Positions 641 to 26,261 of a stretch of 64,000 nucleotides of DNA are shown in pieces (the stretch's first letter is position 1; every line of letters starts with the position of its first letter). Origin of the DNA: a virus. The notes under the pieces are model-generated. The model had not been told where the DNA came from. It searched no databases and saw nothing but the letters and a program-made list of their open reading frames with translations. The stretch spans positions 405,618 through 469,617 of IMG/VR virus record IMGVR_UViG_3300028840_006907. The stretch is one strand, 5' to 3'. The position numbers and the translations under genes are program-made.

Positions 641-3600
641 ATGGCAATACCAGCTCCAGAAATACTTCTTCCTACAGGTGGGATGGATTATGCAACAGAT
701 ATAGCCACACAGACTTTATCTGGTACAACTTCTGCTGATACTCAAGAGATCCAGATAAATGGGTCAGTTCATGGTGTATCATATACTGCAGGAGAAACTA
801 TTTGGTCCTGGACAGGTACTTTGACTTTAGGTAGTAATGTAATCAATATAATAGCAATTGAGAAAGTCACAAGTTTGCCTAGTCCTGCTACTACGATTAC
901 TATAACATTAATTCCACCTGAAGATGAGGTGATTACGGTTAGTTCTCCTACTGGAGTACAGACATTACGTTATCAAGATAAAATCGAAATAAAGAATGTT
1001 CAGAATCCTGAACCCAATACAATAGGGTATAATTACTATGTTAGTACACAAAGTGGTGGGATAGATGGAGTTTATGCGAAAATCAATACTGATTACATAA
1101 CTGAATATACTTCATACGAAGATAAAGCAACTCTCATAAATACAGTTACTGATACAACTGGTAATATACGTGTGACAGTTACAACTGAACAAATAACCAG
1201 AGAATATTATTATTCGGTCTTTTTTGATCAGGAACGTTATACTGAATTAGTAGAAGCTGAACTATTACCAGCAGTATCTTTTAATCAGAATACTCCATTC
1301 TTTTTTGTTGTTACAGCTATAATATATGATCCAGTTCTTGGACAGGTAACTGAAAGTGCCAATTCGATTGAACTTCAGAGTTCTCCTGTTACTATTACGA
1401 CAGGAATAAGAACACTCCCTGCTAGAACTCAGAATGATATTATCCTTACTTTTAGTCAAGATCTTTTATTATCAAATACTGGGACTGATACAAAGCCAGG
1501 TACAGTGGTAAGAGATATGATGGATCCCATCTCGGAGGAGATGGCTAGAGTTTATGTAATTCAGGATTTTCTCGCTCGATCTCTATCAGTTAGTTCATTA
1601 TTGGATTTTGATGATGCTGATGGAGATGGTGAGAGTGATGCAGTAGAGGATTCCATTCCGAAAAAAGCTTTACAACTTGCTCTTATGCTTACTGATCCTG
1701 ACGATGTCCAGGCAGTTATTGATGCTCAATTTGATAAACTGGCTTCTAATGCTGATACAACAAGAAGATCTGCAACATATGCAGTGGGAGAGGTTACATT
1801 TTTTGTCACCGAAGCTCCTATAAGGGATATGGTAGTAAATGAGGGTGCTATAGTTTCTACTTTAGGTGATTTGGATAGTGGTATCCAGGCACAATCTTAT
1901 AGAACATTAGCTACAAAGATATTAGATTATGAAACTCGTGAAAGATTTTATAATTCGACAACAGGACGCTATGAGATGAGTCTTGATGTTGAGGCATTAA
2001 ATGTAGGTGAAGAAGGGAATACAGATTCTTATACAGTTAAAGTAGTTTCTTCAGGGGCCGATTCAAATTTTCAGGTAGAAAATCCTAATCCTATAAGTTT
2101 TGGTGAAGATATAGAATCAAATTATAATTTAGCCACTAGGATAATGTTGGCATTTTTTGCTGATACCGGTACTGAGGGAGGTTATGCTAAAATAGCTGCC
2201 AGTGTCTCTGGTGTAAGAAGAACTCGTATCGAAAAAGCCGGTGATCCACTAATGATCAGAGACTATGATCCTATAAGAGAAAAACATGTTGGTGGAAAGG
2301 TGGATGTTTATATCCAAGGATCAAGATCGAGACAAGTAACTGATCAGATAGCTTTTTCATTTGAAAGTATAGTATCGAGCCAAGGGGCTCAATCGGAAGA
2401 ACAATTCCTTGTGATAAATGCAGTGGCCTTTCAGTTTAAGACCACGAATCCCCGGGTAACATCACATACCCCCATCTTTGAAGTAAGTCGAGTATATAAT
2501 GCAACGAGAGCACAGGAATATGATATTTCTGGATACCAAATCATAGGTGATGGTAATACTGTTGATCTTGATGAAACTAAAGCTCAGAATGCTGCTATAG
2601 GTTTAGCTGCTACAGATGTAATAAAAGTCGATTACAAATTTAGGAGTTCGGATACTTTTGTTCTACAGAATCAACCTGTAAATGATATTGTCTCTATTGT
2701 GGGTCAATTATCTGGTACATTAACTTCTGATAACTGGGATTTAGTTACACTTGAAGATCCTTTGGCAGAAGGCCGGTCTACAATAGCACAAGATAGTGTG
2801 AGAATAAAATTTGCAAATAATTTACCTCTTACAGGTTTTCAAACAATTACTGATGAGGTTCATGTAATGATTTTGGGTAAAAATGAACCTCTTGATTTTT
2901 TAGGGGCTGACCCTACTTCTATTGTAGTTAAAAATTTGGCTAAGACTGTTACTTATGTATTAAATGTGGATTACAGAATCGATCCTGGTACTGATACTGA
3001 GGCTACTGAAATTATTATGATAGAATCAGGTAGTATCAGTAATGGAGAGCAGGTTTTAATAAATTATGTAGCAATTGAAAATTTTATTATAACTTATACA
3101 ACGAATGAGTTATTAGAAACTGTTCAAGATGAATTGGATGAATATAAGCATGCCTGTGCTGATGCCATAGCAAAACAGGCCATAGAAAATGGTGTTGATT
3201 TTGCTTTTACTGTGGTACCGAAATCTAATGTGGTAGATTTTAACACATTGACTTCTCAGATTACAACCTCGATAGCAAATTTTATAAGTCAATTGGATAT
3301 AGGTGTCTCACTTACTCAAAGTGATGTGGATAATCAAATAAGAAAAGTTGATGATGTAGATTATGTTGTCCTTCCGTTTACTCGTATGGTAAAATCTGAT
3401 GGCTCTCAGATTGTACGAGATGATATAGGTCAAGTACAATTTGAAGTATATAATGATGGTGTTACAAGATCTTATATAACTTCAGCAACGGTCCTTTCTT
3501 ATAATACTATTGATAAGGGTGGTGATGAGAATAAATTTAGAGGAGTATTTGAGAACACAGTTGCACTTATTTTACAGGATGATCCTCTTGATGTTTCGGG

Positions 3601-3814
3601 AGGTGCAGGACGTGCCTATATCCAGAGTGATGGAAAAATAATCGTAAGTACTATTGATGGTCAGTTACCTGATACGAAAAATTATGAAGTAGCATATTAT
3701 GTGGAAGGGGAAACTGGTTCTGAAGATATTAATGTAGCAGCAGTTGAGTCTTTAAAAATTGGGACTCTAACAATTGCTTATGATACACCACGAGAACAAC
3801 TTCCTTCGTTATAA
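641..3814 (+). CDS. large Thr/Ser/Asn-rich protein, putative virion structural protein (1057 aa)
   Basis: Long uninterrupted ORF; composition typical of phage fibre/baseplate proteins; functional call is inference only. Confidence 0.55.
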   Translation: MAIPAPEILLPTGGMDYATDIATQTLSGTTSADTQEIQINGSVHGVSYTAGETIWSWTGTLTLGSNVINIIAIEKVTSLPSPATTITITLIPPEDEVITVSSPTGVQTLRYQDKIEIKNVQNPEPNTIGYNYYVSTQSGGIDGVYAKINTDYITEYTSYEDKATLINTVTDTTGNIRVTVTTEQITREYYYSVFFDQERYTELVEAELLPAVSFNQNTPFFFVVTAIIYDPVLGQVTESANSIELQSSPVTITTGIRTLPARTQNDIILTFSQDLLLSNTGTDTKPGTVVRDMMDPISEEMARVYVIQDFLARSLSVSSLLDFDDADGDGESDAVEDSIPKKALQLALMLTDPDDVQAVIDAQFDKLASNADTTRRSATYAVGEVTFFVTEAPIRDMVVNEGAIVSTLGDLDSGIQAQSYRTLATKILDYETRERFYNSTTGRYEMSLDVEALNVGEEGNTDSYTVKVVSSGADSNFQVENPNPISFGEDIESNYNLATRIMLAFFADTGTEGGYAKIAASVSGVRRTRIEKAGDPLMIRDYDPIREKHVGGKVDVYIQGSRSRQVTDQIAFSFESIVSSQGAQSEEQFLVINAVAFQFKTTNPRVTSHTPIFEVSRVYNATRAQEYDISGYQIIGDGNTVDLDETKAQNAAIGLAATDVIKVDYKFRSSDTFVLQNQPVNDIVSIVGQLSGTLTSDNWDLVTLEDPLAEGRSTIAQDSVRIKFANNLPLTGFQTITDEVHVMILGKNEPLDFLGADPTSIVVKNLAKTVTYVLNVDYRIDPGTDTEATEIIMIESGSISNGEQVLINYVAIENFIITYTTNELLETVQDELDEYKHACADAIAKQAIENGVDFAFTVVPKSNVVDFNTLTSQITTSIANFISQLDIGVSLTQSDVDNQIRKVDDVDYVVLPFTRMVKSDGSQIVRDDIGQVQFEVYNDGVTRSYITSATVLSYNTIDKGGDENKFRGVFENTVALILQDDPLDVSGGAGRAYIQSDGKIIVSTIDGQLPDTKNYEVAYYVEGETGSEDINVAAVESLKIGTLTIAYDTPREQLPSL

Positions 3815-3826
3815 GGAGCTTTATGT

Positions 3827-6800
3827 ATGGCTGAGAATTTAGGAACGGGTGTTTCTTTTGTTGATGAGAGTAATGGGTATAATTATGATAAAGTTGTTTT
3901 CCAAAAACAAAAGCCACCTTTAGATACTGAATTAAATCTTGCTCAAGAGATACAAAATTTACTGGCAAAAAGACATATAAAAGGAATGCCTTCTGGTTGG
4001 TTAAATATAGAGGACTTTTATACAAGTTCATTATTAGAAAACCAATTTTATACCCAAGATCCGGACACAGCTATTCCAGAATATGCTGTTGTGAATGGTA
4101 TGGTTCTTTATGTGACTAACACTGGTACTTCTGAAACAAATTCAAATTTGATCACTCTTACTGATCCTCCTACCTCAGGTAATCTTGTTAATGGTGTAAT
4201 CCTAGAAGTATGGAGAGCTTTATTAGATACAGAAACCGATAATAACAGACCTGATTCAACAGTGGTTATAGATTCGTTAATGGCTATTGATGCCGTTACT
4301 GAAAATAGTGCCTGGACAGTCGGGGAAAATGGGCTTATTCTAGCTACTGAAAATGGTGGTCAAACATGGTCGGTTCAATTAATTGATACAAAAAAGAAAT
4401 TAAATGATGTTCATTTTATAAATACAACAGTAGGTTGGGTAGCCGGTGATAATGGTGCCATAGGTAGAACTTCATCTGGTGGTGTAACTTGGCTCGTATT
4501 ACAGAGTGGCTATACTGAGAATTTCAATGGGATTCATGCAGCTACACATCTAATTGCTTGGGTTGCTGGTGATGGTGGTATTATTCTTAAAACCGTCAAT
4601 GGAGTTAACTGGTCGGCTCAAAATAGTAATGTTACAGCAAATCTTAATGATATTTATTTCTATGATAGTTTAGTAGGATGGGCAGTAGGAGATAATGGTA
4701 CTATAATAAAAACCACTGATGGTGGATCCAATTGGATAACATTAACAAGTGGTACCACAGAAAATTTAAACGCTGTCTTTTTCTATGATTTAAATTTTGG
4801 TTTTGCTGTTGGTGATAATGGTACAATTTTAAGATCATCTGATGGTGGGCTGTCCTGGGTTGATCAATCTGGTAACATATACACTGGTTCTGGTTATACA
4901 AGTCTTTCAGTGAATTACACTGATGTCACAATGGCCCCTTCTCTTGATATCCACGTGACCAATGAAGAGGTAACTTCCCAATTTACAGGTTCAAATAAAA
5001 ATTGTACTGTAGTGAATGTTCCTATGACTAAAGGTGATGGGTTAGGTACAACAACGAATAGCCCTGCTGATGTCGATGGTGAGGGTAATTTAAGTACTGT
5101 TGTAACTGTAAATGGTACTTCTGTTCTTATAGATAGCATTGATGGAACTACAGGTCAAATTATTCTTAATCAGGCTCCTCAAGCATGTGATACAGTCCTT
5201 GTCTCTTATTGGCATAAAGTCAGCCCTGATATTTTTACGGGTAGGGCATGGATTACAGGGGCATCTGGAACAGTGTTGATGAGTCCAGACATTGGTGCTA
5301 ATTGGAATCAACAAACTCCAAATACCAGCTATGATTTAAATGGTGTAAGTTTTGTTGATCAAAATAAGGGATGGGTAGCTGGAGCATTTTCAGTGATGCG
5401 ACATACTGAAGATGGTGGTACTACATGGACTACTCAAATCAGTGATACCGTTTCTCGAAGGGTGCAACGGGTTTATAATGAAGGTAATGTAGATACTGTT
5501 ATCTTTTTGGATGATGAAATGATCCATCCTGACACAAACATAGAAACGACAAAAAGAGTTCAAATTCAATATAAAATAAGAGTTATAGAAAATGTTGATC
5601 CCTTTTCATATCCGGATGCGGGGCTAGGCTCAGCGGGTATTGTGGCTCTAGGGCCAAATGCTACAGGATCATTTGCTTATCAGAACATGGGTTCTACGAC
5701 AGGTGATTATGGTTTATGGCAAGCGAAATGCTCTAATACAGTAGATGGGTACGCATGGGCTATCCCAATGTTTTTTGTCAATAGAAGAAATAGCACTACT
5801 TTTAATGCTGCCAATAATACAAATGGTTCTAATGCTAAAGGTACTTCAAATATCCGACCTGATCTTTTGACCGGTGTTGATGTTGTAGATCAGGATATTC
5901 TTGATGTCAGGAGACAAATATTTATCCCTTCAGTGACTGAATTACTAAATAGTAGTTTTGATGCCCTTATGAATAATCAGTTAAAAACTCGATTTTTCAG
6001 ACAAACCACTGGTGGTGATAGTTATTCTGTTGAGCCTTTACAATTGGATTATATCGCGCATGGTTCTGGTACTGAAATTGATGCTACATTGAGCGAGGCT
6101 GTTTCGGGACAAGTCACATCAATTACAACAACGAGTACAATATCTCAAAGTGTTCCTGCATCTACTTCTTTACCTTTTGATGTGACATTAAGTATTCCAG
6201 TAGGAACTCGGGGATTATTTCATCCTAATTCTATTTATTATACAGCTCGTTATGTAAGTAATAGTGCCACATATGATGGGAAACCTATTCCGGGAGAATT
6301 TACTGGTATAGGTACAAATTCAGTAACGTTTAATTTTAGTGCAAAAGTAAACACTACAAATGAAGACACTAATTTAGTCAGTTATGATATTGTGGCTCAT
6401 TATGTAATATTTAGTCCTAAGTCATTGAGTAAAATTCCTTCTACTCCTCAGCTAGTAGAAAATACAGGAACGGTAAGTGAACCTTCTTTTTTCTATAGAG
6501 GAGTATTTACCAGTGAAACTTCTGGTAGAAAGATTGAAGAATGGGATTCAGGTATTTCAGGATATCCGAGTTATACTCTAGCCTATCCTGTTATAGAGGC
6601 AGGAAGTACTGCACAGGAAGCCCGAGCTTCTTCGATTGAGGTACATTTATATATAAGACTAACTAGTACTGAAATACAAAGTATTAATCAGATTAAGATA
6701 AGTCAGGAAGTTTATCCTGATGTTGCAGATACGACTTCTTATTATAATCTTTACTGTGTCAGTGAAATAAATAATATCACTTCTGGTTTTAGTTTTAAGA

Positions 6801-7903
6801 TAGATGATATTGTAATCACAGATGCCATTTATATTGACAGTGCTTCTGGTTTCCCCTTTATCGAAGGTAATGTCATTGAAATTGTGGGTATGGCATTGGC
6901 AGCTACCGGTAATTCTTATACCAGAAATGGTGCAAGTGTTAATTTTACTCAGGGTGAGAAAAAAATAAGCCCATTTGCTTATTCATCTCGTTTAAAAATA
7001 ACTTCATTTCCTCCTGGGTCTATATCAAGTGTTCAGTTTACTAGCCTCGATGCTGATAGTGGTCAAATCTCCACAGCTTCTGGGGTATTTCTTGGTATAA
7101 GTACAACAGAAACTGTGAATAGTTTAACTGATCATTTTGCTTGGGTTGATGTTGGAGCGGGAGATGTTCTTACTCCAGTAACAGTGACAGGATTTAATAC
7201 CACGACTTTAACAGTAAATTTCGCTACTCCTATATCACCAACTAGTGTCAAGATACAGGCTTTAATAAAACAGGCTAATTTAATTTATGGCACTGATGCT
7301 GATGATGGATTACAGATAGCTTATAATTTTATTCCGAGTCAAACTCCTACAAATCTTCCTTCCAGTTTAATAGTAGGGATGGTTACTAATCCTACAAGTA
7401 TTTATATATCAAATTTAGGTACTGGAGGCAGTCTTGTAGATAAGGAACCTTATAGTTTCCCTATTGATAGTATCCCTGTAAATAATAGCTCTATTATTGA
7501 TGATAATGAATTTTATAATTTAGATCTATTTAGATTTTCTAATTTCTCAGTAGATAGTGGGTTTGTTCAGATGCCTACTATTGTTCCTGGTTCTTTTGGG
7601 GAAGAGTTAACTTTTTCAAGTTTAACTACTGATGAGTTGTTACGTACTTTTTATAGTACATGTGATACAGAATTTGCCTTCAGAACAGAAGGTATAAAAA
7701 TTGGAATACCGAGAAAGATATTTATCGCTACTATAGGAAGAGTAAAAGAGAACTCTACTCAATTATTACGAGGTGAATATGTTCTTATAATAATTTCCAG
7801 AGATAGCCTTACTGATTTAGAAAATTACACAGGTTGTGAAACAGGAAGTGGTAATGTTATCGGGATCTACCGATTACCGAATAAGCCATTGGTAAGAAAG
7901 TAA
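3827..7903 (+). CDS. giant putative structural protein with embedded BNR/Asp-box beta-propeller (1358 aa); paralogue of 13823..16876
   Basis: AAGGAG RBS upstream; seven S/T-x-D-G-G-x-x-W-like repeats (GGQTWS, GGVTWL, GVNWS, GGSNWI, GGLSWV, GANWN, GGTTWT); shared blocks with the 13823 ORF (VVFQKQKPPL, LEVWR, RVQIQYKIR, YAWAIPMF, DILDVRR). Confidence 0.7.
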   Translation: MAENLGTGVSFVDESNGYNYDKVVFQKQKPPLDTELNLAQEIQNLLAKRHIKGMPSGWLNIEDFYTSSLLENQFYTQDPDTAIPEYAVVNGMVLYVTNTGTSETNSNLITLTDPPTSGNLVNGVILEVWRALLDTETDNNRPDSTVVIDSLMAIDAVTENSAWTVGENGLILATENGGQTWSVQLIDTKKKLNDVHFINTTVGWVAGDNGAIGRTSSGGVTWLVLQSGYTENFNGIHAATHLIAWVAGDGGIILKTVNGVNWSAQNSNVTANLNDIYFYDSLVGWAVGDNGTIIKTTDGGSNWITLTSGTTENLNAVFFYDLNFGFAVGDNGTILRSSDGGLSWVDQSGNIYTGSGYTSLSVNYTDVTMAPSLDIHVTNEEVTSQFTGSNKNCTVVNVPMTKGDGLGTTTNSPADVDGEGNLSTVVTVNGTSVLIDSIDGTTGQIILNQAPQACDTVLVSYWHKVSPDIFTGRAWITGASGTVLMSPDIGANWNQQTPNTSYDLNGVSFVDQNKGWVAGAFSVMRHTEDGGTTWTTQISDTVSRRVQRVYNEGNVDTVIFLDDEMIHPDTNIETTKRVQIQYKIRVIENVDPFSYPDAGLGSAGIVALGPNATGSFAYQNMGSTTGDYGLWQAKCSNTVDGYAWAIPMFFVNRRNSTTFNAANNTNGSNAKGTSNIRPDLLTGVDVVDQDILDVRRQIFIPSVTELLNSSFDALMNNQLKTRFFRQTTGGDSYSVEPLQLDYIAHGSGTEIDATLSEAVSGQVTSITTTSTISQSVPASTSLPFDVTLSIPVGTRGLFHPNSIYYTARYVSNSATYDGKPIPGEFTGIGTNSVTFNFSAKVNTTNEDTNLVSYDIVAHYVIFSPKSLSKIPSTPQLVENTGTVSEPSFFYRGVFTSETSGRKIEEWDSGISGYPSYTLAYPVIEAGSTAQEARASSIEVHLYIRLTSTEIQSINQIKISQEVYPDVADTTSYYNLYCVSEINNITSGFSFKIDDIVITDAIYIDSASGFPFIEGNVIEIVGMALAATGNSYTRNGASVNFTQGEKKISPFAYSSRLKITSFPPGSISSVQFTSLDADSGQISTASGVFLGISTTETVNSLTDHFAWVDVGAGDVLTPVTVTGFNTTTLTVNFATPISPTSVKIQALIKQANLIYGTDADDGLQIAYNFIPSQTPTNLPSSLIVGMVTNPTSIYISNLGTGGSLVDKEPYSFPIDSIPVNNSSIIDDNEFYNLDLFRFSNFSVDSGFVQMPTIVPGSFGEELTFSSLTTDELLRTFYSTCDTEFAFRTEGIKIGIPRKIFIATIGRVKENSTQLLRGEYVLIIISRDSLTDLENYTGCETGSGNVIGIYRLPNKPLVRK
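4270..5460 (+). other. BNR (Asp-box) beta-propeller-like domain inserted in the 3827..7903 protein
   Basis: Seven Asp-box-like repeats spaced about 40-60 aa apart; region absent from the paralogue 13823..16876. Boundaries approximate. Confidence 0.55.
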
Positions 7904-8870: not shown

Positions 8871-11800
8871 ATGACTCAAATATATCTACCAGATTCAGAA
8901 GAACTCGGAAGACGCCGATTCCATGATGCTAAAAGTGATCGTCGTAATTTAAAAAATCTCGCTGAGCAACGTCTCCTTGAGATGCGAACGTTATTGCCTT
9001 CTAATTACCCTAAAGATCCCTATAGTAGTAATCTTGCTTTATTCCATCGTTTTAATGCTCGGGAGCTGTCTCGAATAAGAATCTCTAATGATGATATATC
9101 AAGAGATTCTCAATACACTACGACAAGACCAGAGTATCTTCATCAGATTCTTGGTGAGAGGCTTTTTTTAGGCAATAGAATAGCTCCTCTTGGTTACAAT
9201 GACCAGACATATAGAGAATTTTTAATAGCGATTAAAAACACTTATTTGCGGGGATCGCGGGTTGATGATATTGAAGCATTAGCCAGTCAGTTTACAGGTC
9301 AGGAAGTTATCATAAAAGAGTTGTATAGGGAATTAAGGAATCCTGATACATCTCTTGATGTCACTGACACAAATTACATGGTTGTTGAAGCATTGATACC
9401 TGGTCAATTACCTGCTGGTTATAATATAACTTCATTATTAAATGATTTAGATTTTTACATTAATTTAGTGCGGCCAGCGCATGTTTTATATGATACACGA
9501 TTGATATGGACTGAGACCATTGATGTAAATAAGACAACAGATATCTATTTTGGTGATACCGGTGGTGGTTGTGTCCCTCTTTATATTTTTGACCCTTTTG
9601 ATGAAACAACGCTTATGGCGTTGCAGGTATTTGTCCTTCCTACTAGTGAAGGAGCAACAGGTCGAATAGATTCCATTCATCATTGGGATTACCTTTTTTA
9701 TTTGGAAGATGGCACCAGAGTATTAACTGAACCAGGTACTCAGGGAACACAGATTTTTGATGTAAATGGTCGTCAGATTAGTTTTAGCTCTCTTGAAATA
9801 GGTGATCATGTAAAAATAAATTATCAAATTATACCTGGTAATTTTCAATTCTGGTGGTATCCTGTAGGTTTGTTTCCTACATGGAGTTCACAGTTCTATA
9901 GAGATTATTACAGACTTCCCATATTCCAGGAATATGTAAAAAAACATATGGATTCTAAGGGGAGATTTCCTCTTCAGATAAGAACAACTGAAACGACCGT
10001 TTGTGATCGTTGGGTAACAGATGCTCTTCAGCCTTATTATGAAGATTTAAGAACAAATTGTTCCAGTGGAAGTGTCCAGTCTAAAGATTATTCTTCTACT
10101 CTTAACATCAGAATGGGAAGTGGTCATTTTGCCAATCCTTATGGTACAAACCAGACAGCTCTGCCTGGAAATGAATTTGCTTTTTTCATGGAAAACACTC
10201 CCTTAACTGATGGATCGAGTAATCCAGCTACAGTTTCAGATGTTTCTGTGATGTTAGATGGAAGTTCTTTACCTCCTCAACCGGTAGTATATGTCGATGC
10301 TAGTTCCGGGAAAGTGCAATTAAGTGAGGACCATGAATATTGGGATAATACAGCATTAACTTTTCCTATTCCTGGGGAAGAGTTCCAATTTGATTATTCT
10401 TATCTTCAGGATAGTACTAATTATGATACATCATCTATATATGTCTATGGAGTGGGTAGCTGGCAGATGCCAAATGCTCCTCTTGTAGAAGGTGATAGTA
10501 CGGGTATTCTTGCGGATACAAGTGATGTAACATTATCTGTAGATGGTACAGTAATAAGTAATGCAATAACAGATGTAAATGCTTTATTAGGGCATGTAAC
10601 AGTTAATCAACTTTCGAGCTTTTGGAATAGTTCTGAATTAGGACGTTTACCTCAGGTAGGAGATGAGTTTTTATTTAGTTTCTTTTATGGTAAGAAATAT
10701 CAATATTCTTGTCTTTTTGATGAATTGGGTAGAACTTTTGATACTTATATAGGTCCGAATTCAACTTATGGTATTGTTTTCGACGGAGAATTAAACCAAA
10801 ATCCTGAAACAGCTCCTATAACACCAGATGCAACTGCAGTAATAGGTTATCGTTATCGGGGTTATTTATTACATCATAGTTCGGTATTAAATTCTCCTGA
10901 TACGTTACAATTAAATACTTTTCAGAAACCTGCTACTCGTGCTTCTATAATAAATCAGGCTAATACTATAAATCATTTTAATATTTTCTTTTCACCTGAA
11001 TTTCTTTATGATACTACGGCATATGATTATTTAGATGATTCTTATCTTGAAAATGGATTAGACCCGATTCTGAAATTAAATGTAGGTACTCCTCCTTTTC
11101 AAAAGACATGGTCATATCATCCAGGATTGGTTAACAGTAGAAAATTACAAGATATAAGAACAAATCATCGTTTACTACTTTATTCTGATTTACTACTGAA
11201 AGAGTTCCAAGAAGGTAATGAAGACATACCTTTAAGTTCTATATGTGATTCAGAACGGGTAGAATTTAGAATACGTATTGATGGTGATGATATACCGCCT
11301 TTAGAAGAATGTCCTCCGTGGATTTTATTTGATTCTGTTCAGGTCGATGATGTTGAAGTTACAGTCCCGGGATTTTATCAGGGTGTACCAAATGTCAGAG
11401 TACCTGGAATGAATTTACGCGAAAGTTTTATTCTTAGGGAATTGGAATCTACTGGTGTTGGCGAATATACTTATACCTTTAATACTGATAGTAGTGCTAC
11501 TCCTGAATATTACTTACCTGCAACATTTCCATATACGTATAATGGTGATACAATTAGCTTTCCTGCTTTACCTGTTATAGATATTAATGGTAATCCGGCA
11601 ACGATTAGTGATATAGAAGTTAGGGTAAATGGAGTTTTATGGACTGTATTAAGTCTTGATCCAGTGACAGGTTTTGTACAGGTAAGTCCGTATCCGGCTG
11701 GTCCGGCTATTCAAGTAGAGACAAAATATTACATAAACAATGTTGTGACAATGCCTATGGCAAATTGGGATTGGTCTAGGATTCTTGATGACGATGATGT

Positions 11801-12185
11801 CTTTCCAGGTTATTGTCAGGATGGTGTAGGTATTACGCTAGGACTCAATTTTGATGAATTCTTTACGTTTCTTGATGATGATAGTGATGGTATTAAGATA
11901 GTGTTTTTCAATAAGGATACTTTAAATGTTGAGGAGCATATCTTTTCAGGACCAGTTTTTGAGTATTACAATATAGCTGATGACGAATTAGGTTCACCTG
12001 ATAACTTTCCAAATGCTTTAGTAAGATTAGTAAATCCGATACACTTAACTAATCCTCTGAGTTATTCTGGTGATTATAGCTTTCTGAATGATAAAGTTGT
12101 GAGATTTAGGAAGAAAACATTTAAAGAGCTTCTTCCTAGTAAGACATTTCGAACTATAGAGTTGATGGAAATGATGCCTCTATAA
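8871..12185 (+). CDS. large hypothetical protein, putative virion structural protein (1104 aa)
   Basis: Long ORF with no internal stops; no catalytic motif recognised. Confidence 0.55.
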   Translation: MTQIYLPDSEELGRRRFHDAKSDRRNLKNLAEQRLLEMRTLLPSNYPKDPYSSNLALFHRFNARELSRIRISNDDISRDSQYTTTRPEYLHQILGERLFLGNRIAPLGYNDQTYREFLIAIKNTYLRGSRVDDIEALASQFTGQEVIIKELYRELRNPDTSLDVTDTNYMVVEALIPGQLPAGYNITSLLNDLDFYINLVRPAHVLYDTRLIWTETIDVNKTTDIYFGDTGGGCVPLYIFDPFDETTLMALQVFVLPTSEGATGRIDSIHHWDYLFYLEDGTRVLTEPGTQGTQIFDVNGRQISFSSLEIGDHVKINYQIIPGNFQFWWYPVGLFPTWSSQFYRDYYRLPIFQEYVKKHMDSKGRFPLQIRTTETTVCDRWVTDALQPYYEDLRTNCSSGSVQSKDYSSTLNIRMGSGHFANPYGTNQTALPGNEFAFFMENTPLTDGSSNPATVSDVSVMLDGSSLPPQPVVYVDASSGKVQLSEDHEYWDNTALTFPIPGEEFQFDYSYLQDSTNYDTSSIYVYGVGSWQMPNAPLVEGDSTGILADTSDVTLSVDGTVISNAITDVNALLGHVTVNQLSSFWNSSELGRLPQVGDEFLFSFFYGKKYQYSCLFDELGRTFDTYIGPNSTYGIVFDGELNQNPETAPITPDATAVIGYRYRGYLLHHSSVLNSPDTLQLNTFQKPATRASIINQANTINHFNIFFSPEFLYDTTAYDYLDDSYLENGLDPILKLNVGTPPFQKTWSYHPGLVNSRKLQDIRTNHRLLLYSDLLLKEFQEGNEDIPLSSICDSERVEFRIRIDGDDIPPLEECPPWILFDSVQVDDVEVTVPGFYQGVPNVRVPGMNLRESFILRELESTGVGEYTYTFNTDSSATPEYYLPATFPYTYNGDTISFPALPVIDINGNPATISDIEVRVNGVLWTVLSLDPVTGFVQVSPYPAGPAIQVETKYYINNVVTMPMANWDWSRILDDDDVFPGYCQDGVGITLGLNFDEFFTFLDDDSDGIKIVFFNKDTLNVEEHIFSGPVFEYYNIADDELGSPDNFPNALVRLVNPIHLTNPLSYSGDYSFLNDKVVRFRKKTFKELLPSKTFRTIELMEMMPL

Positions 12186-12245: not shown

Positions 12246-12830
12246 ATGTTTTATAAAGAAAATCTGCATAAAACCGGTGATACATTTTCAGGGGGTTTTA
12301 AGTTAAGATATCTGGAACAATCACCTTCATTAAAAGGCGAGTTCTGGATGATACTTAAAGATCGTTCTGGACAAATAGTTGGTAAAAGACACGGAAATAA
12401 TATTATTGTAAATTCCGCTTCAGTTTTAATAGCACGTTTATTAAAGGACAATAGTGAGCCTAGTGGTGGAATTACTTATTTGGCAGTAGGTACAGGTGGG
12501 GTTGGGTGGAATTTACAGAATCCTCCTCAGCCTACAACTACACAGACAACTCTTGAGAATGAAATAGCCAGAAAAGCTTTTACAACTGAGGATGTAACTT
12601 TTGTAGATCCAGAAACCGGGGATCCAACTATTGTTCCAACGAACGTTCTTGATTTCACCGCAACATTTGCAGAAACAGAAGGTGTAGGTCCTTTAGTGGA
12701 AATGGGTTTATTTGGTGGAGATGCAACAGATTTATTGGATAGTGGTACTGAAGTCAATTACAGAACTTTTCCTGTTCTAAATAAAACAAATTCAATGACT
12801 TTGACCATAATATTTAGGATAACAGCTTAA
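12246..12830 (+). CDS. hypothetical protein (194 aa)
   Basis: AAGGAG RBS 6 nt upstream of ATG. Confidence 0.55.
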   Translation: MFYKENLHKTGDTFSGGFKLRYLEQSPSLKGEFWMILKDRSGQIVGKRHGNNIIVNSASVLIARLLKDNSEPSGGITYLAVGTGGVGWNLQNPPQPTTTQTTLENEIARKAFTTEDVTFVDPETGDPTIVPTNVLDFTATFAETEGVGPLVEMGLFGGDATDLLDSGTEVNYRTFPVLNKTNSMTLTIIFRITA

Positions 12831-12888: not shown

Positions 12889-13830
12889 ATGTTTGAGAAT
12901 CTTGGAGTATGTAAAGGACCTGGGACAATACTGGGTCAATTACAGATGGGTACAGAATCAATAAATATCTCTAAGATAGGCAGACATTTTTATGCGTTGT
13001 TGAATAACCGGGTTATAATGACAGCAAAATCAAAGCAGGTTTTACAAAATAGAGTTGTGCCAGTTCTTTCTCATATTGTAGAAAACATCTGTAAAACATC
13101 TCAATTGGATTCAGCTCGATGGAGGCCGGTAGATAAGAGATACACTCAATTAGTAATAGATACGATTGAAAATATAAAGAAAAATTTAAAACCGGTAGAG
13201 ATCTATGTATTGAAAGCAAAACCAGATGAGACCCAAGATAATAGATCGATTCTATCAGAAAATAAACAAGGTATAATAGAAAAATTAAATGATTATCGGT
13301 TAAATCTTAAAAAGTTTGAAGAGACGAAAAATAATTTACAAGAAGCTTCTGAGGTGCTTTTAAAGGTTAATCTTGACAGGAAATTATGGGGTAGAAAAAA
13401 TGTCATGGATATCATAAATGAGGCAAAGACTGGAATGGCTGAATTGTCTCAAGATTATGAAACTGTTGACAGTTGTTTGGAGCGATCTGATGAACAGGTT
13501 AATAAAGTACAAATTATAATAAGTAAAAAGATTGCTTCTAGAATTTTAAAAAGTACTCTTGGGAGTATCATTGAAAATTTTTCTATTTTAAAATCATTTT
13601 TATCAGAACTAGCACAAGTGTTATATAGGTTTTATGGTATTGATAACGTTTTTAAAAATCAAGTTGGTTATCCAGCTACATGGTTTTTAGATAGTGCGGT
13701 TTTTACAGACTTTCTTTTTGAATATGATAATTTAATCGATCAACTTATTAAATTCACTGAATTAGAATCAAATACGATAGAACCATTACTATTGTGGAAA
13801 ATAAAGATGACGGGAGTATCAAATGTCTGA
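12889..13830 (+). CDS. hypothetical protein, coiled-coil-rich (313 aa)
   Basis: Track ORF; stop overlaps the start of the next gene. Confidence 0.5.
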   Translation: MFENLGVCKGPGTILGQLQMGTESINISKIGRHFYALLNNRVIMTAKSKQVLQNRVVPVLSHIVENICKTSQLDSARWRPVDKRYTQLVIDTIENIKKNLKPVEIYVLKAKPDETQDNRSILSENKQGIIEKLNDYRLNLKKFEETKNNLQEASEVLLKVNLDRKLWGRKNVMDIINEAKTGMAELSQDYETVDSCLERSDEQVNKVQIIISKKIASRILKSTLGSIIENFSILKSFLSELAQVLYRFYGIDNVFKNQVGYPATWFLDSAVFTDFLFEYDNLIDQLIKFTELESNTIEPLLLWKIKMTGVSNV

Positions 13831-16800
13831 TTATTTAGGCCCAAACCAGACCAGAGTATTGGATTACGACAATAGAAGTTTTGAAAAAGTAGTTTACCAA
13901 AGGAAAAAACCTCCTCTATCAAGTGAAGTTAATCTTACAGGTGATATTTCATCTGAACATGCCAAAGATTTAGCTCAGTTTTTACTTCCTAGTGGATGGG
14001 GAATTGTTGGTGAATTAAGAGATGATGTCACTGAAAGTAGCGCTGATGCTGGAGATGTGATTTGTTCTTCTACTTATACAGCAAATTCATTCAAATTACT
14101 ATCTCTGGATAAAGGTGTAGAAGCACAGACATTAATAGCATATGTTAATGGCTGGAAGTTACTCGTTCAAGGATCAAATTCATTAGATGAGAATAATATA
14201 ATTACTCTTTCTGCTCCTCCTTCAACAGGTTATAGAGTAGATTTTGTATTTCTTGAAGTTTGGAGAAAACTTATTACTATATCTGATGTAGTGTATAAAT
14301 ATGGCAATATCCTTTATGGTGGTACGAATCCTTCTAATGATCTTGTTGATCCTGCAATTAATATTGAAACTTCTCTTAGAGTTCAAATACAGTATCGTAT
14401 TAGAATAGTTGATGATATTGATATCGAATCTTATCCCGATGGTTTTGACCCTAATAAAGTCTTTGTACAAGGACCTCTTTCTTCTCCATTAAGTACATGT
14501 AGCCAAGCTTATTTTTCCCAGGTTTCCGGTGATCCTGGCCTCTGGAGAGCAGGAGTAGGTGATGCAGGAGCACAAACAGATCTACAAACTGTTGATGGTC
14601 ATACATATGCTATTCCTATGTTTGCTATTCACCGTCGAAATACCGGTACTTATAATGTGGAAACCCGTTCTAATGGTGCTGGAAAAAGTTTAGCTGATTA
14701 TTTACTGGGTCAACCTTCGGATCGTCCCGATAACAGATATAACAATTGGGTAGTAACAGATGACATTTTGGATATGCGTCACAGAATTACTCCGGTCCAG
14801 AACATGAAAGAGATATGTGAGTCAGCTTTTGAAAAACTTACTCGTGGAAAAATCCGTCAAAAAATGGCAAAACTGACTTTAGGAGAAGATCATTTTGGAA
14901 AGATCCTTACTCAGGTTGATGCAGTAAGTAATGTGGATCTTGCAGGTTCGACTTTGATTGCCCAAGGTGATGGTTTAAGAAGAATGTTTTCTAATGCTCA
15001 GATATCTCAGTCAGATACGCTTGCTGTAAAGACAGTAAATGATAAAACGAGCGGTACTCCAGGTTCACCGTGGGCCACTTCAGATCAGGTACAAATCACA
15101 ATTCCTACATATCCAACTGGTTCTTCTATAACAAGTATCGATGAAATTTATACTTCAAGTGGTGCTCTTACTTTATCTGTGGATTATACTGTTTCTGGGA
15201 CTGGTACAAATACAGTAACGATAACTATACTTGTCACATCTTCATTGATAGGGACAAGTGTACCTATCACTATCGATTATACGGTTATGCTTGCAGAAGG
15301 CCCAAATGGAATGACAGCTCTCCCAGAGAATTTCCTGGAAGTAAGAAATGAAGGTGTAGGAACTCAAATAATTGCTCCTATTGATAATGATATCAGAGTA
15401 AGAAATGCTAATCCAGTAGTAGCAACTGATGGTACACATTTTCACATGTTGTCAAATCAGGGTGCCAATTCCACAGAACCTTATGATTTCGGGCATCAAA
15501 TGATTTATCATGCTTTAGGTAATGGTACTCAGTATATAACAGTTGATAGAACTGCATTTGGTTATGATATATTAGGTGTAGCAAGTGTCTATGTGAATAG
15601 TAATTATCGAACACCTCTTATTACCAGGACTTCCACTCAATATATTATCAATATGCAAAGTCCTGCAGTATCGTTAAATACTGATATTGAAGTGAAACTT
15701 TATATAGGATCCAAGTTTTTTAATACAAATAAACAATCCAGAGCTGTAATCGATACTTATGAAATGAGTGAGCTTTCTCCATTACAGTCACCGAATGGTA
15801 TTTTAACGACATTTAATATAGACAGTACAAATAAGGCTATTCAAGCAGTAGCTAGTGGTGCTGTTCTGGATGGGGCTGGTATCGCTTATGTTGATGGAAC
15901 TCAAGTAACTCTTACTAGTACTAACAGTAGATATCCTACCGATTCAACAAAATCTCGAATTGAAATAGAATTTAGCTCTGCTCCTGCAGGTAGTACTACA
16001 ATAGAAGTACCCTTATTGATGAAAAGTGCTATCACATCATCTGAAGGTTATGATTTCTTTTATCATGCTGTTCCATATCAAGGGTTGCTAGATACAACTG
16101 CTTTTGGTGTTATAGAAGAAACAGGACCGGCCATGGTGACTACTGCTGGTTCAGGTGGTATTACTGATACTACGTTTACGGATGGTGTAGCGATTTTTAC
16201 TGCAGATAGTACTTCTGTAACAGGTGTAAATACAAATTGGCTAGCCGGAGTGAATCCTGGTTACGTTATCAGTGCTGATTCTACTCCATCGAAACAGTTT
16301 GAAGTTTCACAGGTTTATAGTAACACGAGTCTAACTATCACAGGGAAACCAGATTTCACTTCTATCGGTGGTGAGTCCTACACTATTACAGGAAAAGATA
16401 TTCCTTCTTTTTCTCAATCTAATATTATCGATAGATTGCCAACATATGATAATACTCATGATAGTATGGGAAGAAGTGAAAATATTTCTAATGCGGTTTC
16501 AGATGGATACCCTGTTCTTGAGTCAAGGATAATGACCAAAGTACAGAATATTGTAGATGCTCCTCCAAATTCAGTGATATATGGTGTAAATACTGCTGAT
16601 CGTGGGAGATCTACTATTAGTATTCCGAATGCTTCTTTGGGTTACGGTAATCTCGGTTTAAGATTTGAGAAATTGGATGCTACAGGTCAATACCAGAAGA
16701 CTTATCAATCCTATATTTTAAATAAAGATAATGATGGTAGGCTTTATTTAATGGTTGTAGCTAGTGAAACAGACCAATCAAGTCATTCAAGGTTTTTTAA

Positions 16801-16876
16801 TGAACGTTCTAATTTGGATACAGTTGATATTTTTGAAATGCCTGGACGTCCTATAACTAAACGGGGTACTAATTAA
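13823..16876 (+). CDS. large putative structural protein (1017 aa), paralogue of 3827..7903 lacking the propeller
   Basis: Conserved blocks with the 3827 ORF: VVYQRKKPPL, FLEVWRKL, RVQIQYRIRIVD, YAIPMFAIHRRN, DILDMRHRI. Confidence 0.7.
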   Translation: MSDYLGPNQTRVLDYDNRSFEKVVYQRKKPPLSSEVNLTGDISSEHAKDLAQFLLPSGWGIVGELRDDVTESSADAGDVICSSTYTANSFKLLSLDKGVEAQTLIAYVNGWKLLVQGSNSLDENNIITLSAPPSTGYRVDFVFLEVWRKLITISDVVYKYGNILYGGTNPSNDLVDPAINIETSLRVQIQYRIRIVDDIDIESYPDGFDPNKVFVQGPLSSPLSTCSQAYFSQVSGDPGLWRAGVGDAGAQTDLQTVDGHTYAIPMFAIHRRNTGTYNVETRSNGAGKSLADYLLGQPSDRPDNRYNNWVVTDDILDMRHRITPVQNMKEICESAFEKLTRGKIRQKMAKLTLGEDHFGKILTQVDAVSNVDLAGSTLIAQGDGLRRMFSNAQISQSDTLAVKTVNDKTSGTPGSPWATSDQVQITIPTYPTGSSITSIDEIYTSSGALTLSVDYTVSGTGTNTVTITILVTSSLIGTSVPITIDYTVMLAEGPNGMTALPENFLEVRNEGVGTQIIAPIDNDIRVRNANPVVATDGTHFHMLSNQGANSTEPYDFGHQMIYHALGNGTQYITVDRTAFGYDILGVASVYVNSNYRTPLITRTSTQYIINMQSPAVSLNTDIEVKLYIGSKFFNTNKQSRAVIDTYEMSELSPLQSPNGILTTFNIDSTNKAIQAVASGAVLDGAGIAYVDGTQVTLTSTNSRYPTDSTKSRIEIEFSSAPAGSTTIEVPLLMKSAITSSEGYDFFYHAVPYQGLLDTTAFGVIEETGPAMVTTAGSGGITDTTFTDGVAIFTADSTSVTGVNTNWLAGVNPGYVISADSTPSKQFEVSQVYSNTSLTITGKPDFTSIGGESYTITGKDIPSFSQSNIIDRLPTYDNTHDSMGRSENISNAVSDGYPVLESRIMTKVQNIVDAPPNSVIYGVNTADRGRSTISIPNASLGYGNLGLRFEKLDATGQYQKTYQSYILNKDNDGRLYLMVVASETDQSSHSRFFNERSNLDTVDIFEMPGRPITKRGTN

Positions 16877-25400: not shown

Positions 25401-26261
25401 CCTTTACATCGGTTTGATTCTGCTGGAATTATAAGTAAAAATACTTCGGCGGATATTATGAAGGCTGTCATGGCCCGGATGAACTCCTGGCTCACGAGAA
25501 ATAATCTGCATGATGATATAAAAATATTGATTACCATGCATGATGAATTGGTTTTTGAGATTACAACTGAAAAATTGCAGATACTGGTACCAGAGATTTG
25601 TAAGATCATGCAGTTGAATGATATTATTCAGGGTCAATTGAAATGGCCCATTCCTTTGGAAGTTGATATACAGTATGGTGATACTTGGAGAGTTAAAGGT
25701 GATTTTCTTAAGGATTTTCCTGATTTGAGGAATAAATTAAGTGAGCCTTTAATGGAATTTGAATCTTTACAGAAGATAAAAGATGATGTGCCAAAAGATA
25801 AAAATGATGAACCTCCGGTGGAAAGTAATAAAATTGAAGAAGAAAATTCAGAGAAAGATTCAAATGAGGTACCAGATAACCAGATTATAGAGGAAAAAAC
25901 TCCTTCTGAAATACAAGATATAGAAAAGTCTGAACAACATGATGTACCTAAAGATAAGGAGGTTTTGGAGAAAGTTGATAGTGGTACTGTAGATAGTAGT
26001 AAAATATCAGAAAAAAAAACTCTAAACGGCGGTGATATATCGGGTCAATATTTGATTTATACTCTGCGAGAATTGAGTACGATAAGTTCACGATGGTTGA
26101 ATGATATTTTGGTTTTTTTGAATGATGAGGGCAATCGATATGAAGAGAAAGATAAAAAAATTTTAAAAATCCGTGACAGATCAGGGAACTCTTTATTAGT
26201 TTCAGAGTATAAAGTACACCCTGAAAGTTTTTCCCTTTTGGCAAGATTTTTTGGGATATGA
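22473..26261 (+). CDS. family A DNA polymerase with 3'-5' exonuclease domain, interrupted by an intein, plus C-terminal extension (1262 aa precursor)
   Basis: Exo motif ALDLETTGL; Pol I motifs DYANEEMRVA (A), RKIGKTVNFLALYLGG (B), NTKIQG/TSADIMKAV split by the insert, ITMHDELVFE (C). Confidence 0.9.
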   Translation: MAPKKQFVNTGFMEFVEDTVQTRIAEMPWMADRTFKLAKSMEEVENYIDRAIEAKRCALDLETTGLNTRVKKVDGKIVPIGKIVGFALCYDPKVAIYIPINHREGIEFNLPEEAVLKEIKRLCYNCITIYHNAKFDLTYLKNYGIVLDNHNQFEDTLLLAYLHDSGRKANKLKDLSPELLDQPMLKFNEVAKEGHFDLVSPDVGYTYGASDAMCTMDLYIFFTEQEIIKSQQMIYNLEKRVVFVMMDMEANLIKIDVPYLKDLKTKVENRIEDIKKEIHQLVGYEFNLGSSQKLGKILFDDLKYKYPEKTKTKSGQYSTDSKTLNKIADLYPIVKKIINFRGLEKVLSTYINNLLNNHDEEGFVKLQFKQTGTDTGRFSSPGGQGIHIDGSSGVNVQSIPKMPSEDNPDIDMRRAFIARPGKTMVAIDYANEEMRVATNISNETAWIESIHKGIDFHTATGAIISGKDPKDVLKSERKIGKTVNFLALYLGGPFTLAGNAKITVPEAKKILATFFAGVPKLKKWIDRVIVVARKEKFVKTIFGRTRPLNKYYDSGDKGLAAHADRCAVNTKIQGCLCQEERCLTTEGYLSIIKIKKLKESGQNLKIWTGVSWEDFEVLDRGEAQLAIIELKNGMILHCDTRHEVLTVNNERYEFKKFNELTEDTNICISRPQLLKFGSYPEEIIFEGNVWNAQKLKVSTAEEWDFIAYLLGCVIGDGSIYIDKKASKYVITLNFGEEKIRRIFPDLKRKLNDLGLNISEPVLNKGSKGICYKTSICSVTLTKLFGEMGYHFHDARDKRIPQRIMESPIKMRQSFLRGYFDTDGCKKEANKYGFHTPNKDLLRDIQLLAWTLGCPSTIYDCGDGSSIFNWMNYRIFAELMDLTYKKEERKCNTQNMPLPDFLREPILNSLGNCYVKNGNDRSYVCKVRKGKNVSLPGIVSLLESYNCELPEIYYHSKLEKKRVLSKKEVTYTLSVKSPLHRFDSAGIISKNTSADIMKAVMARMNSWLTRNNLHDDIKILITMHDELVFEITTEKLQILVPEICKIMQLNDIIQGQLKWPIPLEVDIQYGDTWRVKGDFLKDFPDLRNKLSEPLMEFESLQKIKDDVPKDKNDEPPVESNKIEEENSEKDSNEVPDNQIIEEKTPSEIQDIEKSEQHDVPKDKEVLEKVDSGTVDSSKISEKKTLNGGDISGQYLIYTLRELSTISSRWLNDILVFLNDEGNRYEEKDKKILKIRDRSGNSLLVSEYKVHPESFSLLARFFGI
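24195..25442 (+). mobile_element. intein with LAGLIDADG homing-endonuclease domain, inserted in the polymerase (about 416 aa)
   Basis: Insert begins with Cys after KIQG and ends with Asn before TSADIM; LAGLIDADG-like motifs LLGCVIGDGSIYID and FLRGYFDTDG; N-terminal boundary ambiguous by about 21 nt. Confidence 0.7.

Follow-up and report, generated by a model that had tools for sequence, protein, structure and literature searches.

A Ycf48-type propeller predicted within one of two paralogous proteins encoded among the baseplate genes of a huge phage

Hardly any huge phages have been cultivated, and next to nothing is known of how they recognize their hosts. The locus described here raises the question of what two very large, related proteins do in the tail block of such a phage, and what is the role of the beta-propeller that only one of them carries. 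The window analyzed is a stretch of 64,000 nucleotides of the viral record IMGVR_UViG_3300028840_006907. Both open reading frames, referred to here as A and B, are present at exactly the coordinates given in an earlier reading made from the letters of the sequence (Table 1). The source phage is uncultivated and of about 470 kb; a protein identical to B, P0121, occurs on contigs of up to 469,617 bp.

Table 1. Features of the baseplate block and of proteins A and B, in positions of the window.
Feature	Position	Strand	Evidence or remark
Baseplate_J wedge protein, T4 gp6 / P2 gpJ-like	641..3814	+	PF04865, 1.5e-18
ORF A	3827..7903	+	1358 aa; gp211-like scaffold bearing propeller insert
A residues 1-133, N-block common to B	3827..4225	+	hhalign E=5e-33
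A residues 134-146, outgoing linker from scaffold hairpin to propeller	4226..4264	+	pLDDT ~80
A residues 147-345, propeller blades 1-5 (predicted)	4265..4861	+	each blade ends in an Asp-box-like motif
A residues 346-471, blade-6 strand 1 (~359-368) and nested beta-rich domain (predicted)	4862..5239	+	model, repeat alignment
A residues 472-540, rest of blade 6 and blade 7 (predicted)	5240..5446	+	motif positions, model, repeat alignment
A residues 541-562, return linker	5447..5512	+	pLDDT 58-89
A residues 563-745, conserved core common to B	5513..6061	+	BLASTP, hhalign, conservation
A residues 746-1358, beta-rich C-terminal part	6062..7900	+	hhalign, pairwise identity
1104-aa protein, N-terminus like phage G gp189	8871..12185	+	E=1e-7
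BW3TFN-type protein (baseplate wedge 3 / tail fibre network component)	12246..12830	+	PF25691 4e-7; phrog_5417 4e-25
ORF B	13823..16876	+	1017 aa; scaffold as in ORF A, without propeller
B residues 152-171, short hairpin loop equivalent to the A insertion site	14276..14335	+	alignment, model
B residues 793-860, small domain like the N-terminus of tail/side fibres	16199..16402	+	phrog_1980/1591, ~1e-6

The sequence-only reading proposed that A and B share a duplicated scaffold. The motifs on which this was based were all found and aligned between the two proteins, including VVFQKQKPPL/VVYQRKKPPL, LEVWR, RVQIQY(K/R)IR, YAWAIPMF/YAIPMF and DILDVRR/DILDMRH, and the pairwise similarity is far above chance. 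By BLASTP, A563-835 matches B172-467 (E=2e-28) and A1-133 matches B1-151 (E=4e-15). Comparison of family profiles by hhalign matches A563-1200 with B172-788 (probability 100%, E=4e-61) and the two N-termini with each other (E=5e-33), while the C-terminal tails match weakly (E=8e-5). No relatives of A and B were found among the other ORF pairs of the block. Judged by their sequences, A and B are paralogous over most of their extent, arising from an old duplication. The duplication is regarded as ancient because the longest contigs of A-type and B-type matches agree in size down to ~31% identity. Full-length homologues of A share 30-78% identity with it, and PF14870 is present in all of them.

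The N-block of A contains a long helix (residues 33-51) and a final strand holding LEVWR, and the core contains the motifs ETTKRVQIQYKIR, YAWAIPMFFVNRRN, IRPD and DILDVRR. These are the most conserved regions of A; pairwise identity within the A family is 60% for the N-block and core, 47-54% for the propeller, and 36-37% for the C-terminal ~600 aa. Residues 746-1358 are the most variable region, yet homologous to B, and a distal part of this kind is also seen in receptor-binding proteins and tail fibres. Within the N-block and core, some 40 positions with polar or charged residues reach a conservation of at least 95%; a possibility, though a doubtful one, is that the conserved polar core of the scaffold forms a new enzymatic or metal-binding site.

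The extra ~400 aa of A were confirmed by alignment, with ~410-430 residues in A (A134 to ~545/562) set against ~20 in B. The insert occupies a β-hairpin loop, which is at most 40 aa long in B and nearly all other relatives, and the return-linker segment RVYNEGNV of A is the counterpart of YKYGNILYG in B. The loop is longer than 300 aa in all A-type proteins (117/117), and 40 aa or shorter in all B-type proteins (120/120) and in 110 of 112 more distant representatives. Likewise, PF14870 is present in 120/120 of the best A-type matches and in 0/120 of the best B-type matches. Because the loop is short in B-type proteins and distant relatives, and long only in A-type proteins, the direction of insertion is clear, namely that the propeller was gained in the A lineage. 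The AlphaFold2 models have a pTM of 0.64 for A versus 0.88 for B, with lower confidence in both A linkers, which suggests that the propeller is flexibly tethered.

By sequence and model, the insert itself is an Asp-box propeller with seven blades and belongs to the Ycf48/BNR type. The seven Asp-box-like motifs noted earlier are indeed there, ending in W181, W222, W262, W303, W344, W493 and W534, and the seven repeats show 29-41% mutual identity. Pfam PF14870 (PSII_BNR) matches A in four stretches at 94.9 bits (E=7e-27), above its gathering threshold of 27 bits. The proposed fold was reproduced in the AlphaFold2 model (pLDDT 87), which has seven four-stranded blades with a pLDDT of ~90-96 within blades. 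Foldseek returned Ycf48 at the top (E~1e-12, TM 0.70-0.73), the designed 7-bladed protein 7bie (TM 0.84), and further matches to GH74 xyloglucanases and to 3b7f, a 'putative glycosyl hydrolase with BNR repeats'. The photosystem II assembly factor Ycf48/HCF136 (PDB 2xbg, 5ojr, 8am5_S; PF14870), also a seven-bladed Asp-box propeller, is the best match of the A propeller in fold as well as in sequence (1e-14), and has in common with A the repeat signature …GW.VG..G.I..T.DGG..W…. As an orthologue of Ycf48/HCF136, A was rejected, with 95.5 bits versus the cutoff of 326 (NCBIfam NF010237 equivalog). Ycf48 is a free protein of ~330 aa from oxygenic phototrophs, whereas the propeller of A sits inside a phage protein of 1358 aa, has an extra domain nested in blade 6, and lacks a photosynthetic context. 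In Ycf48, a conserved arginine patch binds the D1 C-terminus; across 71 homologues of A, no Arg of the blades reaches 80% conservation, and R544 lies in the return linker.

The repeats of A are not contiguous. About 110-125 residues (~A360-471) form a separate domain inside blade 6, placed in the loop between strand 1 and strand 2, which has weak similarity to DUF2460 and no match in the PDB. In a distant clade, the corresponding blade-6 site holds a domain with no relation to it (hhalign probability 1%), and in P0027 the nested domain is duplicated. The I-domain of the integrin alpha subunit and a beta-barrel in the phage K1F endosialidase are both nested in beta-propellers. Such placing of a ligand-binding domain in a propeller loop resembles A, but the proteins are unrelated to it, and in K1F the propeller has six blades and is an active sialidase.

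The scaffold, here called 'phage G gp211-like', represents a large, mostly beta, multi-domain family of putative virion proteins in huge myovirus-type phages, and an exhaustive search gave 3,368 clusters. Many of these have in common the profile positions 1-~290 only, with differing C-termini (1,300-2,150 aa); because they share this region and then diverge, the family suggests a pattern of an anchor plus a variable part. The B family matches phage G gp211 with an hhalign probability of 99.9 (E=3e-34 over B27-795). By Foldseek against BFVD, the B model matches gp211 (E=1e-25), gp420 (1e-16) and gp431 (4e-11), with low TM (0.2-0.3), as expected for multi-domain chains. The A/B scaffold is found in gp211 of Bacillus megaphage G (with its paralogues gp420, gp431 and gp423) and in gp247 of the Tunturiibacter phage Tunturi_5, with tblastn giving ~1e-21. 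The gp211-type proteins form multi-paralogue families in huge phages, like A and B. However, these uncharacterised proteins have no propeller at the hairpin, and their C-terminal parts differ. Tunturi_5 gp247 lies among tail genes and is a 'tail fiber protein' by annotation only. No scaffold homologue was found in the PDB when B and the B-family profile were compared with all chains, the only match being the ~70-aa domain that resembles a fibre N-terminus. The only domains that the scaffold matches in fold come from phage tails, tailspikes, capsid-decoration proteins and pilins, and Pfam, PHROG and NCBIfam offered nothing usable for the N-block, the core, the C-terminus or the nested domain when each was searched by itself. 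Literature searches for such domains (BNR, Ycf48, propeller) in the baseplates of phages, or in jumbo phages, turned up no account of the A/B family. As a host hint, bacterial and archaeal genomes offered only metagenome bins of very mixed taxa, which are most likely mis-binned phage contigs.

The structural setting proposed for A and B is supported, as their genes sit among baseplate genes. Baseplate_J lies directly upstream of A with a gap of 12 bp, and this order is also found in a distant relative clade (~32% identity); between A and B are a gpI-like ORF and the BW3TFN gene. The profile phrog_1160 gives 0.007 for the gpI-like ORF and 6e-14 for phage G gp189, a protein named as P2 gpI-like in the baseplate of phage G and detected, together with gp188, in virions (PMC12484599). 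Phage G gp188 and gp189 are the counterparts of the wedge proteins that flank A and B. Identity of A or B with gp189 was considered and rejected, the B-family profile matching gp189 with a probability of 0.2%; ORF 8871..12185, rather than A or B, is best taken as the counterpart of gp189. The small domain at B793-860 has PDB matches to the F2-pyocin side fiber (25ve_A, E=3e-4) and Dit (23gd_B).

We give about an even chance to the explanation that A and B are peripheral baseplate proteins, with the propeller as a non-catalytic binding platform on an anchored scaffold. Most likely, the N-terminal module (N-block and core) would anchor A and B to the baseplate wedge, and their variable C-terminal half would project outward. 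A complete seven-bladed Asp-box propeller was inserted into a hairpin loop of this module in the A lineage, with a further small domain nested in its blade 6. Held on two linkers, the propeller would most likely be a non-enzymatic binding platform. Our best guess at its ligand would be a conserved host-envelope component, used for adhesion; the ligand might just as well be a second protein of the virion as a glycan of the host. The placement in the virion, at the baseplate, is suggested by Baseplate_J upstream and the gpI-like and BW3TFN genes between A and B, as well as by the presence of gp188 and gp189 in virions, the tail-gene context in Tunturi_5, and the fibre-like domain in B. The proposal that A is a candidate receptor-binding protein is plausible. 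The propeller is not the hypervariable specificity tip, because it is better conserved than the C-terminal half.

Baseplate proteins that present a beta-propeller for host recognition are known, namely Gp45 of Staphylococcus phage phi11 (PMC4901313) and the 80alpha RBP (PMC7048315). Their propeller is five-bladed and not of the Asp-box type, without sequence or scaffold kinship to A, and the RBP is a trimeric stem-platform-tower protein of a siphovirus, unlike A. The role of Gp45 in adsorption was shown by experiment (PMC4901313), whereas a binding role of A is a prediction.

The propeller may instead be an internal structural or assembly platform that docks other parts of the virion, for instance fibres or the BW3TFN-type protein, and not the host; this is possible, though on balance unlikely. 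Propellers are classic platforms of protein-protein interaction, and Ycf48, in structure entries titled 'YCF48 bound to D1 peptide', binds a protein or peptide and not a glycan. The propeller of A is also fairly conserved, has no hypervariable face, is kept in every A-type protein of a deep clade, and is inserted into the most conserved module, which is presumably baseplate-proximal. However, the swapping of the blade-6 nested domain between clades and its doubling in P0027 suggest an adaptive, outward-facing surface, and no partner candidates for the propeller were identified. It is improbable that A is the equivalent of T4 gp7 / P2 gpI, the 'initiator' of the inner wedge and partner of the gp6-like protein, with B as a second copy. 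The gp7 gene follows gp6 in T4, and A comes right after Baseplate_J in a conserved order and is of similar size, a likeness of position and size that includes P2 gpI and TssG. The N-terminal helix of A and B, with its low-confidence flanks in the models, could enter a helical bundle. The giant 'baseplate wedge initiator' proteins (gp7-annotated) of T4-like cyanophages such as S-8S55 and S-CAM9 bear BNR/Ycf48-type repeats, as in A, with 33-34% identity to A186-353, but the likeness is limited to these repeats and the remainder (~3,890 aa protein, S-8S55) is unrelated to A and B. No sequence, profile or fold similarity of A and B to T4 gp7, P2 gpI or TssG was detected, nor any wedge-family match in Pfam, PHROG or NCBIfam, and a separate gpI-like gene is present here.

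The hydrolysing role that the sequence-only reading allowed for the propeller is not supported. A glycoside hydrolase or depolymerase (sialidase- or GH74-like), acting on host surface polysaccharide, is very improbable, even though Asp-box propellers are frequent in glycosidases, phage tail proteins are often depolymerases, and GH74 xyloglucanases and 3b7f are among the Foldseek matches. Across 71 homologues, the invariant propeller positions are Gly or Trp throughout, with no invariant Asp, Glu, Arg, Tyr or His, and since the propeller is without an invariant charged residue, hydrolase activity is unlikely. Identity as a sialidase (GH33) or GH74 enzyme was rejected, as neither the Arg triad, Tyr/Glu and Asp of sialidases nor the catalytic Asp pair of GH74 is conserved, and the FRIP motif is not visible in A. 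Sialidases (GH33) have six blades, and a GH74 enzyme requires a pair of seven-bladed propellers in tandem, which together form a cleft; A has a single seven-bladed propeller, whose best matches are the non-enzymatic Ycf48 proteins. A reading of A and B as non-virion proteins, for example secreted or intracellular ones that lie in the tail block by chance, is extremely improbable. We infer rather than observe their virion location, and the ~40 conserved polar or charged positions, which would be unusual if the proteins were structural only, might point to an enzyme. Against this stand the tight co-directional packing among baseplate genes, the conserved synteny, the fibre-like domain in B, and the fold matches, which are solely to domains of phage structures and pilin.

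Returning to the reading of A and B as peripheral baseplate proteins, the pair is a genuine and neat instance of domain insertion, a principle that is not new. As the direction of insertion is clear and the nested site exchangeable, the family illustrates cleanly how a putative virion protein gained domains step by step. The locus defines a large, unnamed tail-block protein family of thousands of clusters, which public pipelines label "photosystem II stability/assembly factor-like" or "hypothetical". The "photosystem II" label misleads, as what it marks is a generic propeller of the Ycf48 type, which is no photosynthesis gene. Being cultivated and having scaffold paralogues, though none with a propeller, phage G allows a direct test of whether the scaffold lies in the virion, and the propeller with and without its nested domain provides concrete constructs for binding assays. 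A broader proposal, which we consider doubtful, is that the scaffold is a widespread, unrecognised platform of the baseplate periphery with a PDB-absent fold, allowing a nested display from module to propeller to exchangeable blade-6 domain. If this were true, megaphages could retarget adhesion modularly, leaving the baseplate interface untouched.

The propeller-bearing ORF A and ORF B, which has the same scaffold without the propeller, were both confirmed as open reading frames. The BLASTP matches between them are colinear and fall into two segments, pairing A1-133 with B1-151 at 32% identity (E=4e-15) and A563-835 with B172-467 at 30% identity (E=2e-28); every shared motif from which the sequence-only reading had proposed a duplicated scaffold sits inside these segments. 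Comparison of family alignments by hhalign (alignments A1 and A2, 70 homologues each for A and B respectively) reached far beyond them, pairing A563-1200 with B172-788 (probability 100%, E=4e-61), as well as the N-terminal blocks (E=5e-33) and, weakly, the C-terminal tails (E=8e-5; …VYRLPNKP… and …IFEMPGRP…). All-against-all BLASTP of the 54 window ORFs found no other paralogue. These significant matches bear out the duplication: with similarity far above chance, A and B can be regarded as paralogues over most, and probably all, of their length.

Between the strand closing with LEVWR and the segment (R)VY.EGN in A or (Y)KYGN in B lie about 410-430 residues in A versus about 20 in B. The A insert contains seven Asp-box-like motifs (last residues W181, W222, W262, W303, W344, W493 and W534), whose repeats share 29-41% identity in mutual alignment. 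Its Pfam PSII_BNR score of 94.9 bits clears the gathering threshold of 27 (E=7e-27), and it matches the sequences of solved Ycf48 structures at ~1e-14. The AlphaFold2 model of A residues 1-1200, made from alignment A1 (mean pLDDT 87.3; blades mostly 90-96), presents seven blades of four strands each, and Foldseek against the PDB placed Ycf48 structures best (E ~1e-12, TM ~0.72 normalised to target), followed by GH74 enzymes and a designed seven-bladed propeller at TM 0.84. The seven-bladed prediction was thus correct, and the joint claim of paralogy, insertion and propeller fold is practically certain. The repeats are not contiguous, being broken by ~110-125 residues (~A360-471), a break overlooked in the sequence-only reading. 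These residues form a separate β-rich nested domain, and since strand 1 of blade 6 precedes it by sequence register ("LSVNYTDVTM", cf. "LNDVHFI"), it lies in the strand-1/strand-2 loop of that blade.

As a test for the insertion, the spacing of the two conserved blocks on either side of the site was measured. It exceeds 300 aa in 117 of 117 relatives of A (A-type proteins), and is at most 40 aa in all 120 relatives of B (B-type) and in 110 of 112 remoter family representatives, the remaining two measuring 86 and 99 aa. PF14870 is present in 120/120 best database relatives of A and 0/120 best relatives of B, and the insert is missing from phage G gp211 and from the LR745208.1 homologue. Together, these data show that the short hairpin is ancestral and that the propeller was inserted later, in the A lineage. 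The match lists of the two types have longest contigs of equal size (e.g. 28,970, 36,806, 474,422, 589,645 and 469,535 bp), continuing down to ~31% identity, which indicates that both types sit together on the same contigs and that duplication and insertion are older than the radiation of this phage group. The nested domain is ~50% conserved inside each A-type clade; between the near and far clades it is swapped for an unrelated 160-aa domain in the same loop (hhalign probability 1%; far clade P0086-P0119, e.g. locus L007 10001..14386), and the related protein P0027 (1469 aa) carries it in tandem duplicate. The blade-6 loop is a hotspot for domain exchange.

The scaffold was modelled through B as a very confident compact monomer (pLDDT 91.3, pTM 0.88). 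The B-family profile matched no PDB sequence beyond one ~70-aa domain (B793-860), which looks like the N-terminal part of an F2-pyocin side fibre (25ve_A) and of a distal tail protein (E ~3e-4) and is also matched by the PHROG "tail fiber" families phrog_1980/1591. A similar domain lies near the N-terminus of a 1780-aa protein upstream of the window (L003 235..5577, residues 136-200). The best predicted viral structures for B are Bacillus phage G gp211 (E=1e-25), gp420, gp431 and gp423, with gp211 aligning to the B family across B27-795 (probability 99.9, E=3e-34). A further homologue, gp247 of the Tunturiibacter jumbo phage Tunturi_5, is annotated "tail fiber protein"; after it come two giant proteins (1969 and 1106 aa; L006 15739..25015) labelled 'regulator of chromosome condensation', the name of the RCC1 repeats, which form another type of seven-bladed propeller. 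Propeller modules may be recurrent in jumbo-phage tail blocks.

An exhaustive profile search placed 3,368 clusters at 50% identity in the scaffold family, 611 of them at E ≤ 1e-30. Many are alike only over the first 280-290 profile positions, followed by long, differing C-terminal parts. Within the A family, the N-block (A1-133) and core (A563-745) are best conserved (~60% pairwise identity) and the C-terminal 600 aa least (36-37%). Tail fibres and tailspikes with a common anchoring domain likewise pair a well-conserved N-terminal module with distal parts that vary, and by this analogy we infer that N-block and core would fix the protein to the baseplate. In these two regions, some 40 positions with polar or charged residues are at least 95% conserved among 71 A-type proteins (in A, for example, R577, Q579, Q581, Y582, R585, D627, C635, D640, R653, R654, N655, R677, D679, D693 and R695), many also in B. 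Such strict conservation is unusual for a structural domain and could reflect tightly packed contacts between subunits, or else an active or metal-binding site that has gone unrecognised. Scaffold genes also occur in metagenome bins (L008-L028) assigned to widely differing taxa, among them Altiarchaeales, a Promethearchaeati (Asgard-group) archaeon, KSB1, Terriglobia, Verrucomicrobiota and Parcubacteria, most likely as phage contigs mis-binned into cellular MAGs.

The source is a huge phage: the exact sequence of B is found on contigs as long as 469,617 bp, a 388,651-bp JGI contig yielded the locus, and genes for a SNF2 helicase, DnaB-like helicase, primase, DNA polymerase A, sigma factor and more of phage type lie elsewhere in the window. 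A multi-omics study of phage G describes gp188 (P2 gpJ-like) and gp189 (gpI-like) as baseplate proteins and reports the two from purified particles (PMC12484599). The 1104-aa protein between A and B, whose N-terminus resembles gp189, matches phrog_1160 "baseplate protein" at 0.007 (gp189 itself at 6e-14), and in a relative at ~32% identity an A-type gene again immediately follows a gpJ-like gene. Neighbours and kept gene order place A and B within a baseplate module, and this context makes it likely that they are baseplate-associated virion proteins.

Features of the window, with the local gene order around A and B
Feature	Coordinates	Strand	Size	Match or remark
Baseplate_J, T4 gp6 / P2 gpJ-like	641..3814			1.5e-18; first in local order
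ORF A	3827..7903	+	1358 aa	after Baseplate_J
Core of A	5513..6061
Two small ORFs				after A
1104-aa protein			1104 aa	after two small ORFs; N-terminus like phage G gp189, E=1e-7
BW3TFN-type protein				after 1104-aa protein; PF25691, 4e-7
313-aa ORF			313 aa	after BW3TFN-type protein
ORF B	13823..16876	+	1017 aa	end of local order
Core of B	14336..14932
Fibre-N-terminus-like domain of B	16199..16402
DNA polymerase, family A	22473..26261	+	1262 aa	DNA_pol_A, LAGLIDADG_3 (Pfam)
Sigma-70/LuxR-type factor, auxiliary	26512..27273	+
Second GT2, auxiliary	27709..28512	+		5e-9
Tandem paralogue pair	32779..33438 / 33469..34038	+		74% identity over 189 aa
NADAR domain protein, auxiliary	34276..35112	+		1.5e-51
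Vault-like protein	35187..37628	+	813 aa	MVP_shoulder 1.4e-23, Vault_3 3e-11, Band_7/SPFH 7e-5
Tandem paralogue pair	40810..41220 / 41229..41855	+		43-49% over 55-75 aa
DUF4423 protein, auxiliary	44246..45076	+		1.3e-24
1375-aa protein	45694..49824	-	1375 aa	N-terminal Peptidase_M23, 2e-5 (weak, under Pfam cutoff)
GT2 / chitin-synthase-like glycosyltransferase, auxiliary	52001..53182	-		1.6e-31

Elsewhere in the window, the LAGLIDADG_3 homing-endonuclease domain interrupting the DNA_pol_A domain of the polymerase is probably an intein or other in-frame mobile insertion, and the protein with Major Vault Protein domains is an unusual vault-like or SPFH-shoulder protein for a phage genome. The 1375-aa protein, located around 45 kb at the switch in coding strand and GC skew, is by its domain match possibly a tail-associated lysin. 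No tRNA genes were found across the 64-kb window.

The function of the propeller can be approached from its conservation. Across 71 sequences its invariant positions are all Gly or Trp, and just a dozen polar positions reach at least 80% identity, without obvious cluster. Sialidases have six blades and GH74 enzymes two propellers, whereas A has a single, seven-bladed one. The suggested hydrolysing role is thus very unlikely, and the propeller is in all likelihood non-catalytic. Its moderate conservation in the A family (47-54% identity), with no hypervariable loop class among its loops, argues against a fast-evolving specificity determinant. The lower pTM of A (0.64 versus 0.88 for B) and reduced confidence in its two linkers suggest a flexible tether to the scaffold.

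We favour a non-catalytic binding platform that would present the exchangeable nested domain and most likely help the phage adhere to some component of the host envelope. In the chief alternative, the propeller docks other virion parts. We lean towards adhesion while regarding internal docking as a serious contender, and the preferred explanation has roughly even chances of holding in full. There is precedent for a propeller in a host-recognition protein of the baseplate, namely the phi11 receptor-binding protein Gp45, whose platform is five-bladed rather than seven-bladed (PMC4901313). Giant proteins of T4-like cyanophages that are annotated as gp7 also contain BNR repeats. Integrins and the K1F endosialidase offer familiar examples of a domain nested in a propeller loop.

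Many A homologues are automatically annotated "photosystem II stability/assembly factor-like", a label not to be taken as a photosynthesis-related phage gene. Ycf48 orthology was considered and rejected: the NCBIfam equivalog model, with a cutoff of 326 bits, scores the propeller at 95.5 bits, and the propeller sits inside a phage protein. Searches of the literature turned up no account of the scaffold family. What is new is a large family without name, literature or solved structure, a clear direction for the insertion of a whole propeller into a hairpin of its most conserved module, and a second level of nesting, at which the nested domain is replaced clade by clade.
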